From IMG/VR virus record IMGVR_UViG_3300031867_000012: a stretch of DNA of 64,000 bases. One strand, given 5' to 3'. Positions 3,324 to 62,393 of the stretch are shown piece after piece. This DNA is from an uncultured virus (IMG/VR IMGVR_UViG_3300031867_000012). Its lineage: Duplodnaviria; Heunggongvirae; Uroviricota; Caudoviricetes. The notes under the pieces are model-generated. The model had not been told where the DNA came from. It was given only the letters and a program-made list of their open reading frames with translations, and ran no database searches. Position numbers and translations under genes: made by a program. Within the stretch, counting starts at the first letter, position 1. Every line of letters begins with the position of its first letter.

Positions 3324-3521
3324 ATGAGAACTAATTGTAGTAATTGTCCATATGGTGGATATGATTCATGTTCTGATATTTGTGATGGATGTATGGGAGA
3401 TCCTAATACTGGATTTGGTGGATTTTATGATCATAGAATAAATAAAGATTTTATGTCAGAAGAAGAACAAAATAAATATTATAGAGAAAATGAATACACA
3501 GAAGATGAATACGATGAATAA
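3324..3521 (+). CDS. small Cys-rich protein
   Basis: CxxC...C...CxxC pattern, 65 aa. Confidence 0.6.
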   Translation: MRTNCSNCPYGGYDSCSDICDGCMGDPNTGFGGFYDHRINKDFMSEEEQNKYYRENEYTEDEYDE

Positions 3522-3722
3522 AAATCCTCAACAAAGAATAAGTGGTATGTCTTGTCCTAATTGCCAAAATTTATACCAATATCTATGTATCAATTAATGA
3601 GTATGAATAGTATTTTTTGTCCGGTTTGTGGATTAAAATTAGATATGAATAAAAAATCATCTGAAAGGGCTAGAGAAATATTAAGAAAATTAGAAGAAGC
3701 AAAAAAAGAAATTAGAAAATAA
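3514..3722 (+). pseudogene. frameshifted zinc-ribbon protein (CPNC...CPVC)
   Basis: Frame 0 MNKNPQQRISGMSCPNCQN continues in the -1 frame as FIPISMYQLMSMNSIFCPVCGLKLDMN...IRK*; the junction is A AAT TTA at 3567-3573. Confidence 0.65.
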
Positions 3723-3728
3723 ATAATT

Positions 3729-3974
3729 ATGATTGATAAATATGTAATTATTAAATTAGAAGAAAAAGAATATGCAAAATCTTATGATGATATTAAAGAA
3801 GATAAATATCTCCATGCATTTAAATTATTAGATGGAAATCCATATCCATATAAAGATTGGACATATTCTTTAGATAGAGCTATTAAATTCCTTAGTAAAG
3901 ATGATGCCAAGTGTGTTTGTAATTTATTAAAGGTTAATACACCATACCCATTAAGAATTGAATTAATAAAATGA
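3729..3974 (+). CDS. hypothetical protein
   Basis: 81-aa ORF. Confidence 0.65.
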   Translation: MIDKYVIIKLEEKEYAKSYDDIKEDKYLHAFKLLDGNPYPYKDWTYSLDRAIKFLSKDDAKCVCNLLKVNTPYPLRIELIK

Positions 3975-13421: not shown

Positions 13422-13943
13422 ACTAATAAAATTATGTATAAGATTAATGAATTTGAAGTATTAGAAATTATAGATAAGGCCGTTAAGTTTGGTGTTGAAT
13501 CATTTGGACAACAATCAGCTATGGCCCTCCAAATAGCTGCATTTTGGTTAGAAGGATATATTGAAGGTAGAAAAAATGAAATTACTGAAGATGATATTAA
13601 GTCACTTCGAGCAACAATGAAAAATTATTTCTTTATTTAATATGATTATAAAATTTTTAAAAGGAAAGAGAAATCATTATAATTATAAATTTCCTATAGG
13701 CATTTATATTTCTAAAGTTCCTATATATCCTTTAATTAATGGTAAGGTTGAAAATTATCATAAAGGTATGAGAACAATAAATTTTAGATTTAAGAATAAT
13801 GTTTATACAATATTTATAAATTTATATAAAAATGACTAAAAATGAAATTGTAGATGCATTACAAGATGATAAATTGGTTGATTATATTCAACCTTGGTTA
13901 TTAAAATATATTGTAGATTTTGTAATTGAAAATTATAAAGAAA

Positions 13944-15107
13944 ATGAGTAAGATAGCTTTATTACTTTCCGGTGGTGTTGACTCTTCGGTTGCATTGCAT
14001 ATGCTTTGTCAAACTGGGGAGAAGCCTGATTGTTTTTATATACATATTGGTCCTGATGAGAAGGATTCATATAGTTGTACTTCAGAGGAGGATATTGAGA
14101 TGGCTTCTGCAGTTGCAGCAAAGTATGGATGTAAGTTTGATATTATAGATCTTCATAAGGAGTATTGGGATGGTGTTGTAAAATATACTATGGACACTAT
14201 CAAGAAAGGTTATACACCAAATCCTGATGTTATGTGTAACACACTTATTAAGTTTGGTGCATTTTATAAGAAGGTTGGGCATAATTATGATTATATTGCA
14301 ACCGGACATTATGCAACTAGAGTAGGATATGCTAGTAATGGTCCAGAAGTTAATTTTCCAGGTACTTCAATTCCGGTTACTTGTGAGTATTGGAATCCTA
14401 CCGAGGAGTGGTGGATTTGTCCAGCTAAGGATCCAGTAAAGGACCAAGTAGATTTTATTGCTAATATCGATACTTTTGTTATACCTATAAAGAAGCTTAT
14501 ATTTCCTGTTGGTAATTTAATGAAGGATGAGGTTAGAAAAATTGCTGAAGAGAATCATCTTGTAAATGCAAAGCGTAAGGATTCTCAAGGTATTTGTTTC
14601 TTAGGTAAAATTAATTATAATGATTATATCAAGAAGTATCTTGGTGAGAAAGATGGCGATATTGTAGATATTGATACATGTAAGGTTCTTGGTAAACATC
14701 ATGGATATTGGTTCCATACAATTGGTCAGAGAAAAGGCCTGGGACTCTCTGATGGGCCTTGGTTTGTAGTTGGTAAGGATATTAAACAAAATATTGTTTA
14801 TGTCTCTAAAGACCAAAATAGAAATGCCGTATCAAAGTTTATAATTGGAAATATTAATTGGCTAACTCGTAATCTTATTAATGATTATAATAATCTTAAT
14901 GATAAAGATAGTGATATTATCTGTAATATAACATTTAAAATTCGTCATACACCAGAAAAGTATTCTGGTAAGTTAATGTATATAGGAGATGATAATAGAT
15001 TAGCAGTTATTCCTGATGAGCCAATAACAATTGCACCAGGTCAATATTGTATTCTTTATGATGATGCTTATTATCACTGTTATGGGTGTGGAGAAATAAT
15101 GATATGA
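13944..15107 (+). CDS. mnmA: tRNA U34 2-thiouridylase MnmA
   Basis: SGGVDS PP-loop, NPDVMCN, ATGHYA, KDSQGICF, TIGQRKG, PGQ; start placed at ATG 13944. Confidence 0.95.
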   Translation: MSKIALLLSGGVDSSVALHMLCQTGEKPDCFYIHIGPDEKDSYSCTSEEDIEMASAVAAKYGCKFDIIDLHKEYWDGVVKYTMDTIKKGYTPNPDVMCNTLIKFGAFYKKVGHNYDYIATGHYATRVGYASNGPEVNFPGTSIPVTCEYWNPTEEWWICPAKDPVKDQVDFIANIDTFVIPIKKLIFPVGNLMKDEVRKIAEENHLVNAKRKDSQGICFLGKINYNDYIKKYLGEKDGDIVDIDTCKVLGKHHGYWFHTIGQRKGLGLSDGPWFVVGKDIKQNIVYVSKDQNRNAVSKFIIGNINWLTRNLINDYNNLNDKDSDIICNITFKIRHTPEKYSGKLMYIGDDNRLAVIPDEPITIAPGQYCILYDDAYYHCYGCGEIMI

Positions 15108-50729: not shown

Positions 50730-51578
50730 TTATTTTTGATAATTCTCATTCTTAGGTTGATCAACCTTTTCATCAGTACCATAAACATTACGATACTTCT
50801 GAAAATCTTCATACTTAACCTTTACAATAAGTCGCTTACCCATACGATTACGAAGACCTAAATCAGTACGAAGAACAAGACCTTCAGCCATCTTTGCATT
50901 CGGATTCTCGGCAACCTTAGAACGGAAGCCCTTACGAACAAAATCAATTGCTTCATCAAGAGTAAAGTAACCAATCAATGGTACAATAGGTGCCCCAAGC
51001 TTAGTTGCAATCTCATCACGAGCAGAAGTCAAAAGATAAATGTCATTTACTTTAACATCAAATACAATAAACTCATTTCCATCTTTGATATACCAACTAC
51101 CAGACTGGATTCCTGCTCCATAACCTTCACCATAAATAGTATAAATATTAGGTATAACATCATAATTAGGTGTTACCCCATCTTCCATAACCCACTTATG
51201 ATCAACAAACTCTTCTACAGGAATAAACTCTTTAAGACCAAGTGATGCAAGTACTTTTTCATTTGGGTACTTCTCTTGCATATGCTTAAGCAAATTCTTT
51301 GGAATCTGGGCATTATCTGTCTTTCCAGCAATACGTACATTAAACTGTACACCAATAAGTTTTACTTCAGGATTATCCTCATAAATTGGCTGCTTAGTAA
51401 CCTCAATACGGATATTTGTTCCGTCCACTTTTTCTTCCCCGCGCCACTTCAAACCACGAAGATAGTTGAACTCAGGCTCAACAAATGGCTCATAAGGCAT
51501 AATGACATTCTTTGCATCACGCATGAAGATAGTGTTAATCTTCTGATAAGTGTTCTCGCTTCTTTTCTGTTTTCCCAT
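50730..51578 (-). CDS. ATP-dependent RNA ligase (Rnl2-like nucleotidyltransferase)
   Basis: YQKI, EKVDGTN (motif I), YGEGYG (III), FDVKV (IIIa), EGLVLR (IV), KVK (V). Confidence 0.85.
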   Translation of the reverse strand: MGKQKRSENTYQKINTIFMRDAKNVIMPYEPFVEPEFNYLRGLKWRGEEKVDGTNIRIEVTKQPIYEDNPEVKLIGVQFNVRIAGKTDNAQIPKNLLKHMQEKYPNEKVLASLGLKEFIPVEEFVDHKWVMEDGVTPNYDVIPNIYTIYGEGYGAGIQSGSWYIKDGNEFIVFDVKVNDIYLLTSARDEIATKLGAPIVPLIGYFTLDEAIDFVRKGFRSKVAENPNAKMAEGLVLRTDLGLRNRMGKRLIVKVKYEDFQKYRNVYGTDEKVDQPKNENYQK

Positions 51579-53329: not shown

Positions 53330-53781
53330 ATCTCTTCTACTTTTAATCTAACTGTCATTCGATGCCTATCACCTTTTTTATGTATAACTATTTCTTCAAG
53401 AGTTTTATTGTCAAATGAAGTAAAATCTTCATTAAAGAATCTATAATTATCTATAACATATGGGAAACACATATTATATAATTTAATATTATGTTGTATA
53501 CATCCTATTCTTAATGATCCATCATCTTCCCATGTAATTACACCAAAATAATCTATACAATTCTCGTCATAATTCTTATCTTTAAATTTATCTTTTAAAA
53601 GAACATCTTCTTCTATAATAGTTAATTTACAATTAATAACATTTTCTGGTTTCTCCCCATATATATTAGCATGTTTTTTAGATATCCCAAATGCCCTATA
53701 ATAAACTTCACCTGTTTTTGATAACCGTTTTGCACATGTTGTTATTAATGTTGTTCCTATTCTATAATTATCAATCTTCAT
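53326..53781 (-). CDS. hypothetical protein
   Basis: 151-aa ORF. Confidence 0.7.
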   Translation of the reverse strand: MKIDNYRIGTTLITTCAKRLSKTGEVYYRAFGISKKHANIYGEKPENVINCKLTIIEEDVLLKDKFKDKNYDENCIDYFGVITWEDDGSLRIGCIQHNIKLYNMCFPYVIDNYRFFNEDFTSFDNKTLEEIVIHKKGDRHRMTVRLKVEEI

Positions 53782-54367
53782 ACCTATAATGGAAATCTTG
53801 TTTTAAATTATTATATTTATGTAATTCTTCCGATTTATTTGGGAGTTCTTGACATTTTTTAATCCATTCATTTCTTAATGTAAAATTTAATCCTAGACAA
53901 TTAAATATATATAACCCATTAAGTATTTTAATTGCATAAATAGTTTCTGATTCTCCAATACCGTGTTCATAATTAGTTTGAACAAAATGATATAATTGTT
54001 CATCTAACATATCGGCATCATCATCTATTATAACATAGTTTTCTACTTCAGGGTGTTCATTTAGCCATGTTTGTATTTCACCACCTCTACCAGTTCCATA
54101 ATATTTTTTATCTGAAAACCAAGGAGTTACATCATAAAGATTATCAACAAACCATTGTAATATTTTATTTTTTGAACATTTTTTATTTTCATCTAATATA
54201 AACTCTTTTGTGTGTTCAACAGTATTACAACGCCAAGATGATGAAACAACAATCTTAGCTCCTGTTTCATCTACAATTTTTTTAACCCATTTTAATTTCT
54301 TTAGATTAATATACCACTTTGGTGGAATTGTTATAACTCCATCAAAATCAAGAAATATTACTTTCAT
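53771..54367 (-). CDS. HAD phosphatase, Swiss-army-knife RNA-repair-like family (HAD_SAK_2)
   Basis: FLDFDGVI, IVVSSSWR, RGGEIQTWL, YVIIDD. Confidence 0.85.
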   Translation of the reverse strand: MKVIFLDFDGVITIPPKWYINLKKLKWVKKIVDETGAKIVVSSSWRCNTVEHTKEFILDENKKCSKNKILQWFVDNLYDVTPWFSDKKYYGTGRGGEIQTWLNEHPEVENYVIIDDDADMLDEQLYHFVQTNYEHGIGESETIYAIKILNGLYIFNCLGLNFTLRNEWIKKCQELPNKSEELHKYNNLKQDFHYRYED

Positions 54368-57784: not shown

Positions 57785-57800
57785 TATTTTATAAACAAAA

Positions 57801-57834
57801 AATGAGACTTCTAAAATAAATTAGAAATCTCATT
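57801..57834 (-). terminator. terminator ending the tRNA array
   Basis: AATGAGATTTCTAA/TTAGAAGTCTCATT plus T run on the minus strand. Confidence 0.65.
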
Positions 57835-57837
57835 ATG

Positions 57838-57912
57838 AGCGGGCAACGGGATTCCAACCCGCCTTATTTCACATTGGAAGTGTGATGCCATAAGCAACTA
57901 GGCGATGCCCGC
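57838..57912 (-). tRNA. tRNA-Gly(TCC)
   Basis: GCGGGCA/TGCCCGC acceptor, TCACA-CT TCC AA-TGTGA arm; T-loop is TTGGAAT (non-canonical C56G). Confidence 0.85.
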
Positions 57913-57937
57913 ATTTACTGATACAACAAAATTAAAG

Positions 57938-58016
57938 TGGATGCAATAGGATTCGAACCTATGTTTATTTCTTTTATAAAAAAAGACTATACCCAAAGTA
58001 TACCTTACACGCATCC
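57938..58016 (-). tRNA. non-canonical tRNA-like RNA with TTA at the anticodon position
   Basis: GGATGCG/TGCATCC acceptor, ATAGG-TTCGAAT-CCTAT T arm, TCTTT-TT TTA TA-AAAGA arm, aberrant D region. Confidence 0.6.
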
Positions 58017-58028
58017 ATTAAAAAATAA

Positions 58029-58170
58029 AACTAAAGAATATTTATAAACAGCTAAATTTATAATAAAACATTTCAAGTGTTTCGCGTATACCATTTCGCC
58101 ATTCGGGGAACATCCCCAAATCTGGAATCGAACCAGAATATCGATGAAACTGTTTATATGACTATTAGTT
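58029..58170 (-). ncRNA. circularly permuted tRNA-like RNA (UGA anticodon) enclosed by a conserved stem module
   Basis: 5'->3' order: T arm, acceptor 3' strand TTTGGGGA, TGTT linker, CCCCGAA, D arm GCG-AAATGGTATA-CGC, AAACA-CT TGA AA-TGTTT; flanks pair with each other. Confidence 0.8.
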
Positions 58171-58213
58171 TTTTACCATTTGATAATTTTATATTATCAA
58201 TAAAATTATTTAG

Positions 58214-58353
58214 TGGCCGAGGCTGGACTTGAACCAACAATCTTTAATTTCCAAATAATTAACGTGTTTACCTTCGAAGTACCTCTACATCATGACTACG
58301 TTTTAACGAGGAAGTAGACGAGAGCTAATTTCTTTTAATTTCACTACTCGGCC
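58214..58353 (-). tRNA. tRNA with TTG (Gln) anticodon and a ~63-nt insertion in the D-loop
   Basis: GGCCGAG/CTCGGCC acceptor, GTG-AAATT[insert]GGTAAA-CAC, TAATT-AT TTG GA-AATTA, GTTGG-TTCAAGT-CCAGC. Confidence 0.75.
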
Positions 58354-58361
58354 AAATTTAA

Positions 58362-58802
58362 TTACTTAATATTTTCTTTTTCAAAAATATACTTAATAAC
58401 TGAATCCCAATTTGGGAATTTATTTGAATGAATCTGAATATGTTCTCCAGTAAAATTACCAGCTCCATTCTTTATAGAATCATCAATCAAATAATCACCA
58501 ATATTAAGATCTTTATGGTGGCTAAAAATAACATTCTTATATGCATTAGGCAAATATCTCTTAACCCATACAAGTTTTTCCATCAAAGCATTAGGATTAC
58601 TCCAAGGAGAAGTTGAAAGAATATAAACATCAAAATATTTCTCCAATTCATTATAAGATTCAATAGCACCTTCCATAGGTTTCAAATCTCTAAAAAATCC
58701 AATAATGTGTTTTGCATCTTTTGGGTCAACATTAAGTTCTTTAGCAGCACCCAAATAATCGGACATTGTATTGTCCAAATCAATATAAATTATTTTCTTC
58801 AT
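58362..58802 (-). CDS. 5'(3')-deoxyribonucleotidase (NT5C, HAD)
   Basis: YIDLDNT, FFRDLKPMEGA, EKLVW, GDYLIDD. Confidence 0.88.
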   Translation of the reverse strand: MKKIIYIDLDNTMSDYLGAAKELNVDPKDAKHIIGFFRDLKPMEGAIESYNELEKYFDVYILSTSPWSNPNALMEKLVWVKRYLPNAYKNVIFSHHKDLNIGDYLIDDSIKNGAGNFTGEHIQIHSNKFPNWDSVIKYIFEKENIK

Positions 58803-58810
58803 ACAAATAT

Positions 58811-58838
58811 AATATAGTAAATTGAATTAAAAATTCAA
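58811..58838 (-). promoter_or_regulatory. putative phage promoter
   Basis: TTGAAT-N16-TATATT. Confidence 0.7.
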
Positions 58839-58911
58839 TTGTACAGATGTAAATTTTACATTTACAATAGACATTATCTATAAAAATTCAATAATAAATA
58901 AAAATAATTTA

Positions 58912-60009
58912 TTATTTAATAAATTCTAAAAATTTATCTATTTTTTCTTTCATTTTTAAAGAACCTTGTTTAGAATTAATTTCATTCCAATCGATTCTAT
59001 AAACTTCAATTCCATTTTCTTTTATATATTGATCTCTTATAATATCCTTTTCTTTACGATCTTTATATTTATGTTGTTTACCATCAATTTCAAGATCAAT
59101 TTTTCTATTATTAATTTCAATATAAAAATCTAAAAAATATCTTTCACCTTTACCTAAATTACCATATTCAAATACTTTTTCTCTAATATAAGGTATATTA
59201 TTATTATCTAAAACTTGTTTCCAAAATTTTTCAGCATAACTTGTAATATTTCTGGATTTCCATCCTTGAAATCTACCTTCTTTAATTACTTTATTTATAG
59301 ATTCTTTTGATTTTATTGATATAAGTTTTTTATGACATTCATCACAACAAGTAGTACCTCCACCAACTTTACCAGATTTAATTATTCTTGCATAAAATTC
59401 TTTATTACAAATAGCACAATTATGTTTATGCAAATGAATAATATTAATTAATTCATCTTTATAATCATAATTATCTAAATTTAAAATTTTACCAGCATTA
59501 ATTAATTCAGAAATTAATTTATAATTTTTTTTATTAAAATAATTTAATTTTTCTTCTTCTGATAAATATTTAGATTTAGATATATATTGTTCTTTATTTT
59601 TTCCTGTATATTGGTTATGTGGAATATATGTACCATTTTTTAAAGATTTATATATTCCTTGTGAAATTTTTTCTTTTGTTTCTTGAGAATGTACTCTTGA
59701 ATGAGCACATTTACTTGAGCAACATTTAGGATATAAACCTTTATTAAATTGATTATCCGTTAAATCCAATATATATTCTTTTCCACATTTTTTACAAATC
59801 AATTTTCTAAGTTTTTTAGATTTTTCATCAATTTTATTTAATTGTTTAGATTTATCAATACGATTTTTTGTAGCTCTTTCTGAAGCTAATTTTTGTATTG
59901 ATTTATCTCTTTCTTCATTATAATTTGGATTTAATTTACAATGACTCATATGACCCATTAATCCAAATTGATTATTAAATTCCTTTCCACAATATTTACA
60001 ACAACACAT
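58912..60009 (-). CDS. free-standing homing-endonuclease-like protein (zinc fingers, NUMOD3, DUF559/Vsr-like nuclease)
   Basis: CKYC...H...HC, HSQETKEKIS, SYAEK...YFLDFY...EIDGKQH...RD...YRI. Confidence 0.8.
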   Translation of the reverse strand: MCCCKYCGKEFNNQFGLMGHMSHCKLNPNYNEERDKSIQKLASERATKNRIDKSKQLNKIDEKSKKLRKLICKKCGKEYILDLTDNQFNKGLYPKCCSSKCAHSRVHSQETKEKISQGIYKSLKNGTYIPHNQYTGKNKEQYISKSKYLSEEEKLNYFNKKNYKLISELINAGKILNLDNYDYKDELINIIHLHKHNCAICNKEFYARIIKSGKVGGGTTCCDECHKKLISIKSKESINKVIKEGRFQGWKSRNITSYAEKFWKQVLDNNNIPYIREKVFEYGNLGKGERYFLDFYIEINNRKIDLEIDGKQHKYKDRKEKDIIRDQYIKENGIEVYRIDWNEINSKQGSLKMKEKIDKFLEFIK

Positions 60010-60161: not shown

Positions 60162-60257
60162 TATTTCAAAGAAAATGTTAATACTAAAAATCTTAAATGT
60201 TAAAAAATCCTTATTTATCAAAATTATCGAAGTAAGTATTAACTGACTATTGAAATA
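60162..60257 (-). ncRNA. free-standing copy of the conserved stem module
   Basis: TATTTCAA-TAGTCA-GTTAATACT-TACTTCGA...AGTATTAAC-ATTTTCT-TTGAAATA. Confidence 0.7.
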
Positions 60258-60873: not shown

Positions 60874-60942
60874 TCAGGGATGATTGAGTTAAACAACCGT
60901 CTCATAGTAAAATCCATGGCTCTATCGTTGAGCTAATCCCTG
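60874..60942 (-). tRNA. degenerate tRNA with 6-nt anticodon loop ATTTTA
   Basis: CAGGGAT/ATCCCTG and GCTC/GAGC stems intact; D-loop GG and T-loop TTC are mutated. Confidence 0.6.
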
Positions 60943-61094: not shown

Positions 61095-61112
61095 CCTATT
61101 TACAACTATAGG

Positions 61113-62286: not shown

Positions 62287-62393
62287 TGGTGATATATTGG
62301 ATTCGAACCAACGTGGGATATCTTAGTTTCCTTAGATCCGAAAAAACTTAGTACTGTGTCTAGCCTCTGTACAATTGCCTTAATATACTCCCA
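62287..62393 (-). ncRNA. highly divergent tRNA-like element
   Basis: TTGG-TTCGAAT-CCAA T arm, imperfect acceptor, TAAGG after the acceptor as in 57938-58016. Confidence 0.45.

Follow-up and report, generated by a model that had tools for sequence, protein, structure and literature searches.

A likely Y-RNA variant that keeps its anticodon arm, encoded in the tRNA cluster of a cattle-gut jumbo phage

Two-piece (permuted) tmRNA is a bacterial RNA that is transcribed with a closed acceptor loop and opened by processing. A closed acceptor is also described for the YrlA RNAs (RF02553; PMC4201824; 10.1101/312249), in which T arm, closed acceptor and D arm follow one another in this order, accompanied by a Levitt pair, a terminal handle and an association with Ro60 (TROVE). 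YrlA has no anticodon loop and carries the terminal stem in its place, and the Ro60/TROVE gene usually lies no more than 4 kb away. RNase P opening and CCA addition have been shown for the YrlA of M. smegmatis (PMC4201824). Yrn1 of D. radiodurans is also bound by Ro60, and a structure with an anticodon-like arm can be drawn for it (PMC4201824). Finally, the permuted tRNA genes of algae and Thermofilum are described as having the 3' half first, an acceptor closed by an intervening sequence and all arms, with BHB junctions that are spliced and products that are aminoacylated (Soma, 2014; PMC3978253). The literature consulted here, comprising titles and abstract openings with few subscription papers, described no phage Y RNA or permuted tRNA that is permuted in the variable loop and bears an anticodon.

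The window examined here is a stretch of 64,000 nt from an uncultured member of the Caudoviricetes (IMG/VR IMGVR_UViG_3300031867_000012). It belongs to a 126.5 kb viral contig of 25% GC, estimated to be 49% complete, and the two runs with the largest share of the stretch come from the bovine gut metagenome; genomes of GyrB relatives reach 376–435 kb, and the source is a cattle-gut jumbo phage. Two near-complete relatives recur below, G002 (GyrB 92%) and G011 (GyrB 55%; 410 kb), the second of which carries a direct ortholog (L161) of the element described here. The parts of the element (58172–58027) and the features that bear on it are as follows.

58027–58172, minus strand: whole RNA gene, ~146 nt, a handle plus a tRNA-shaped domain whose break lies in the variable loop; gene ends placed from the outer stem
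58142–58172, minus strand: handle 5' strand, comprising outer stem (58172–58165), UAGUCA motif (58164–58159), inner stem (58158–58150) and conserved core (58149–58142)
58138–58141, minus strand: 5' linker, whose last base is U48, the Levitt partner of A15
58137–58121, minus strand: T arm, 5/5 bp
58102–58120, minus strand: acceptor stem, 7/7 bp (3' strand 58120–58114, loop 58113–58109, 5' strand 58108–58102)
58101–58083, minus strand: D arm with a 3-bp stem, identical across all 8 aligned orthologs
58082–58066, minus strand: intact anticodon arm, 5/5 bp, loop CUUGAAA, UGA at 58075–58073
58027–58065, minus strand: 3' linker (14 nt) and handle 3' side (inner stem 58051–58043, internal loop, outer stem 58034–58027)
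57801–57834, minus strand: terminator-like hairpin after tRNA-Gly, a consensus match only, at which transcription through the element would stop
58212–58353, minus strand: upstream neighbour, a normal-order tRNA whose D loop contains the handle in reversed-halves form (handle 5' strand 58298–58275)
60165–60255, minus strand: third handle copy, around a short non-tRNA cargo (5' strand 60249–60228; limits approximate)
50730–51578: RNA ligase, 4–7 kb from the element together with the following gene
53771–54367: HAD_SAK_2 RNA-repair phosphatase

The order proposed in a preliminary description of this DNA (T arm, loop-closed acceptor, D arm, full anticodon arm) is confirmed, all of it on the minus strand, which that description had left unstated, and the anatomy likewise places the break in the variable region. 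The same description was right that the acceptor is closed by a short loop, but the loop is 5 nt long rather than 3–4 nt, beginning with A73, or 3 nt if an extra A-U pair forms. CCA is not encoded. Two enclosing stems complete the fold, 58172–58165 with 58034–58027 and 58158–58150 with 58051–58043. As had been predicted, the element escapes standard tRNA finders: ARAGORN does not call it in its native order, and Rfam gives a partial tRNA match of 21.9 bits. When it is re-permuted in silico, a canonical cloverleaf forms and ARAGORN calls a tRNA in 298 of 324 junction variants, 59 of the 60 listed variants being Ser(tga). The suggested comparison with the Rfam YrlA model returned no match at E≤10.

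The folding energy is modest (z −2.78; 2 of 200 shuffles equally good), and a loose permutation scan gave 7 matches in 20 genome shuffles and one other match in the genome. A covariance model built from 19 elements of other phages, with the window genome and its orthologs excluded, nevertheless scores 58025–58174 at 88.4 bits (E 8e-13, E-values being rough). Contigs from four DNA runs were compared with the window: those of run X1, which may be the source sample, show no alternative letters in the acceptor, and runs X2 and X5, from other studies, differ from the window at 58108–58114. A single X5 contig spans 57837–58173, and the same order occurs at the same place in six metagenome contigs (NT5C 89–96% identical) among 80 loci with the upstream NT5C gene, so the misassembly that the preliminary description had named as a refutation is contradicted. 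An origin in which a deletion joined two neighbouring tRNAs and the product then decayed, related to the other refutation named there, is rejected as an account of the present state by the conserved flanks and the maintained acceptor pairing. The element is real and conserved.

Several other observations concern the surrounding genome. The contig contains a gene for a poly(A)-polymerase/CCA-family enzyme, no match to RtcB, and no tmRNA by ARAGORN. A phage-encoded MnmA-like tRNA thiouridylase lies at 13926–15107 (plus strand) of the window. Within the tRNA cluster, a homing-endonuclease-like ORF occupies 58912–60009 (minus strand), and some strain contigs skip 58211–60009. A degenerate tRNA at 58017–57937 (minus strand; Rfam 27.6 bits) has UUA where the anticodon would be and a D arm larger than usual, and contigs of runs X2 and X5 lack 4 bases at 57978. 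A tRNA-like gene at 60942–60874 (minus strand; Rfam 36.8 bits) is missed by ARAGORN at default settings and has a similar gene at L147 ~3698–3768. Long non-coding spacers at 61100–60945 and 60690–60410 (minus strand) do not reach the gathering cut-off of any Rfam family; in L147 (~3510–3695) conservation of the first is visible, and this spacer varies between strains. A lone perfect T arm at 62329–62296 (minus strand) sits in a short GC-richer intergenic stretch upstream of a 222-aa ORF. In a BLAST of 57800–58400 against annotated phages no record covered the element, and in relatives that share the downstream gene the tRNA cluster is absent within 6 kb. Promoter-like sites numbered 16 versus 8.8 in shuffles, a count that cannot be interpreted because such sites are too frequent in the AT-rich DNA here.

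Eight copies could be aligned, namely the window, six metagenome loci and the G011 ortholog. Handle and T arm are nearly invariant among the seven closest copies. The acceptor stems of the orthologs are unrelated in sequence, with pairing preserved at 7/7 in five of six (the scan made no call for L284), and the anticodon is UGA in the window, GCA in four copies, GUA in two and UGU in G011. A search pattern tied to the window's acceptor sequence matched 0 viral stretches, the acceptor being the most variable part, and a generic T-then-D pattern, run on 5 of the 64 parts of the viral collection, found mostly tandem ordinary tRNAs. The D arm combined with UGA retrieved 18 viral loci, four of which contain six permuted elements; another six are ordinary Ser(tga) genes by ARAGORN with the same D-arm type, and the "Leu-like" D arm of the preliminary description is therefore not diagnostic.

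Reading of these loci revealed the repeated flank, or handle, and a pattern joining handle core and T arm found at least 121 loci in 17 of the 64 parts of the viral collection. From 79 unique loose matches, 38 with a closed acceptor and D arm were kept as the family; the 41 dropped were ordinary tRNAs matching the core by chance, other handle layouts and cut-off loci. Some of the 38 rows are near-duplicates, so the following counts are not independent. The anticodon arm is intact (7-nt loop, 5-bp stem, U33) in 35 of the 38, with a purine at 37 in 34 of these 35 and 20 different anticodons among them. The acceptor has 7 bp in 28 of the 38, and CCA is encoded after N73 in seven. A Levitt pair across the break, A15:U48 or G15:C48, occurs in 37 of the 38 and in 0 of 10,000 shuffles. 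For 19 members, picked by a scan in which three stems had to pair but the D stem and the Levitt pair did not, changes on both sides are seen at 16 of 21 named pairs, and 92.7% of cells are paired. All four tRNA stems and the 15:48 Levitt pair thus covary across the break. The window copy deviates from the core consensus at one position conserved in at least 90% of aligned members. Permuted tRNA-like RNAs with other repeated flanks were also seen (L124:270–600, L096:1–123, L091:245–400 and L007:1470–2110); their records, two of them complete, have no Pfam TROVE match.

The handle is not confined to this element. Its 5' motif occurs three times in the window genome versus 0 times for a reversed control, the other copies being the D-loop neighbour and the copy around a non-tRNA cargo listed above. 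In other phages it is placed at the variable loop, the D loop, the anticodon stem or the acceptor ends, or around bare hairpins that resemble anticodon arms; the automatic layout classes are crude, and the anticodon-stem and bare-hairpin forms were read by eye. G002 has a handle that was detected only with a looser pattern, and G104, an incomplete relative, has three. The close relative G001 has one handle element of another layout (L500:1480–1650, minus strand) between ordinary Ser(tga) and Cys genes, and two ordinary Ser(tga) genes lie beside it.

Handle-bearing phages usually encode TROVE. Among viral records with handles, 35 of 39 encode it, including 12 of 12 near-complete ones, compared with 5 of 49 control records bearing tRNAs (4 of 20 near-complete); the 39 were hand-picked (37 of the 59 handle-positive sequences plus two others) with kinship uncorrected, and do not include the window, L126, 14 weak or single-match loci, some of them real, or six loci whose records had been examined for TROVE before. 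One protein cluster, which is TROVE by its L136 member, lies inside the flank in 21 of 45 loci, and in L136 and L138 the elements directly precede a TROVE/vWA_Ro60 gene. Both near-complete relatives, G002 and G011, have TROVE together with handles; in G011 the element is ~11 kb from the gene, which lies at L156:736–2430. The 126.5 kb contig yielded no TROVE match by HMM, and tblastn with two phage TROVE proteins gave a best E of 0.57; TROVE is also absent in the incomplete relatives G104 (60% complete) and G105 (22% complete), an absence that carries no information at such completeness. Covariance-model scoring covered 150 of 484 candidates; G005 (complete) and G006 have model matches with a different flank and no Pfam TROVE match. 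Among bacterial loci found by pattern, 22 of 120 have a TROVE-like match within 2.5 kb, 7 of 13 with a strict handle and 15 of 107 without. Of the 12 TROVE-bearing bacterial loci with the core that were tested, 11 score 31.6–54.4 bits on Rfam YrlA, below its cut-off of 69.

The same handle core is present in the putative YrlA of Bacillus phage G, a sequence published by Chen et al. (2014; PMC4201824, Table S2), where by our reading the handle sits on a break in the anticodon stem. In that phage the published RNA (L516:590–753) seems to retain its anticodon loop. Some five further copies of the handle, each around a short cargo (L516:2060–2700), come before the gene for the TROVE protein, gp540. 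The preliminary description had set YrlA aside on the ground that YrlA replaces the anticodon arm; the arm is indeed retained here, but the flanking stems belong to a conserved module linked to Ro60/TROVE that the published putative YrlA also carries. The element shares with YrlA the order T arm, closed acceptor, D arm, and the phage family shares the Levitt pair, the terminal handle and the Ro60/TROVE association. It differs in its full anticodon arm and its break in the variable loop, in lying in a tRNA cluster, and in having no Rfam YrlA match. The family as a whole, unlike YrlA, places its handle at several tRNA positions; the motif GNCGAAN0-1G was found near the 5' end of 0 of 38 handles, and the members L136 and L138 score 32.4 and 28.7 bits on the Rfam model. 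One bacterial form, L441, has both the GNCGAA motif and the handle core. By Rfam score, motif and architecture the element is not a YrlA member. Yrn1 is oriented the opposite way, its loop has 6 nt and its D arm is partial, and it is nearer to the acceptor-end forms than to the window element. Judged from sequence comparison, the element is likely a Y-RNA variant that retains an anticodon arm absent from YrlA.

Our preferred explanation, which we consider fairly probable, is that the element is a tRNA-shaped Y RNA opened in the variable loop, whose handle docks the phage Ro60 (TROVE) and which does not decode, its anticodon loop being a predicted bait for host defence enzymes that cut tRNA. 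The bait role taken by itself is the most speculative part and stands somewhat below an even chance. The RNA would be transcribed together with the tRNA cluster, fold into an L shape with its acceptor closed, and dock through the handle on Ro60, whose gene would lie in the missing half of the window genome; the anticodon loop would then be displayed as a bait or competitive inhibitor of host tRNA nucleases. The decoy idea of the preliminary description accordingly survives as the best guess for function. Bait display is favoured because the canonical features of the anticodon loop are kept while the triplet changes, and because some handles bear only a hairpin. An RNA ligase, an RNA-repair phosphatase and a CCA-type enzyme occur in the same phage. 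YrlA has been suggested as a possible competitive inhibitor of an anticodon nuclease (Hughes et al., PMC7790460), and phage tRNAs are reported to counter anticodon nucleases (PMC11555353). Against bait display, the anticodon loop of the D-loop neighbour differs in length between orthologs, so variation in the loop may be drift under structural constraint rather than selection for bait.

The main rival to the bait is a Ro60-bound Y RNA that serves for tethering or elbow recognition, for example of Ro60 to PNPase for RNA decay or to a repair ligase, with the anticodon loop as a drifting leftover. Yrn1 and YrlA are described as acting with Rsr and PNPase (PMC4201824), the T and D arms are near-invariant in the orthologs while acceptor and anticodon change, a pattern of the kind that Wang et al. 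(10.1101/312249) read as elbow recognition, and 3 of the 38 members have no intact anticodon arm. We regard it as rather unlikely, since a 7-nt loop with U33 is kept in the other 35 and the handles with hairpin cargo only have no elbow to recognise. A handle that binds some other protein, or a lineage that has lost Ro60 and in which the RNA acts alone or decays, would fit the contig without a TROVE match and the divergent core of the window copy; it appears very improbable given that the contig is half complete and both near-complete relatives have TROVE, and decay is contradicted by acceptor pairing that persists through full sequence turnover in five of the six close orthologs. A true permuted tRNA-Ser gene is about equally improbable: a phage enzyme would excise the handle like an intron, ligation would produce a circle, and opening of the acceptor loop would follow. 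Acceptance of the re-permuted sequence by ARAGORN, the intron-like placement of the handle in D loops and the nearby ligase and repair phosphatase speak for it. In the 29 of 35 members whose inner stem is clear, however, the handle-to-body linkers sum to 14–24 nt, so that a cut at a position fixed by the handle would leave no constant variable loop. Scored against an E. coli-type discriminator table, 13 of 34 permuted elements have an N73 that matches their anticodon, which is chance level (shuffle mean 11.4, p 0.31); the figure is 104 of 118 for ordinary tRNAs from these loci and 7 of 18 for normal-order tRNAs with an acceptor-end handle. UGA is lost even in close orthologs, the element has A73, no long variable arm and no BHB-like motif visible by eye in the fold, and G001 already has its two ordinary Ser(tga) genes. 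The doubt about Ser charging voiced in the preliminary description is thereby upheld, and the circular intermediate that it proposed is disfavoured, as the anticodon changes independently of acceptor and discriminator, these two likewise of each other, and the linkers hold no fixed register. The element also departs from the permuted tRNAs of algae and Thermofilum in showing no BHB, no fixed register and identity elements uncoupled from the anticodon. Six close orthologs swap the acceptor and read GCA or GUA, yet keep the handle and the T and D arms, so decoding is unlikely, and the element is probably no precursor of a mature tRNA-Ser.

Opening of the acceptor loop by RNase P and 3' trimming, followed by CCA addition, could instead yield a handle-held two-piece tRNA-like RNA that might be charged. 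The 7-bp acceptor of the window and of most family members, the CCA encoded in seven of them, the CCA-family enzyme of the phage and the M. smegmatis YrlA precedent fit such a course, and opening as such is compatible with a Ro60-docked Y RNA. As an alternative to it we think it improbable, in that the window element has no CCA and its 5-nt loop would be a short leader, and identity elements that mismatch the anticodon would make charging arbitrary. Two-piece tmRNA differs from the window element, which has C-G at acceptor position 3-70 rather than a G3-U70 pair, no tag reading frame and a complete anticodon arm.

If the docked, non-decoding Y RNA is the right reading, the role of the tRNA-like domain of bacterial Y RNAs and that of jumbo-phage Ro60 are the questions that this family addresses. 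Large, lying below the Rfam threshold and combining a portable handle with a complete anticodon arm that changes fast, it points to anticodon-reading enzymes as partners, an idea made testable by Bacillus phage G, a cultured and harmless system in which this handle core also lies next to TROVE. A note of caution follows for annotation: some phage "tRNA" calls by ARAGORN, those of the acceptor-end forms with their low N73 fit, are probably non-decoders. More tentatively, and with less than an even chance, Ro60-encoding phages may carry a modular library of bait RNAs, in which one Ro60-docking handle is set on bare anticodon hairpins or, at no fewer than four positions, on tRNA bodies, and anticodons and acceptors are swapped rapidly between strains. 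The phage Ro60 would thereby present a changing panel of anticodon loops that absorb or block host anticodon nucleases. If true, such a library would be an RNA-based counter-defence and would give bacterial Y RNAs a testable function.
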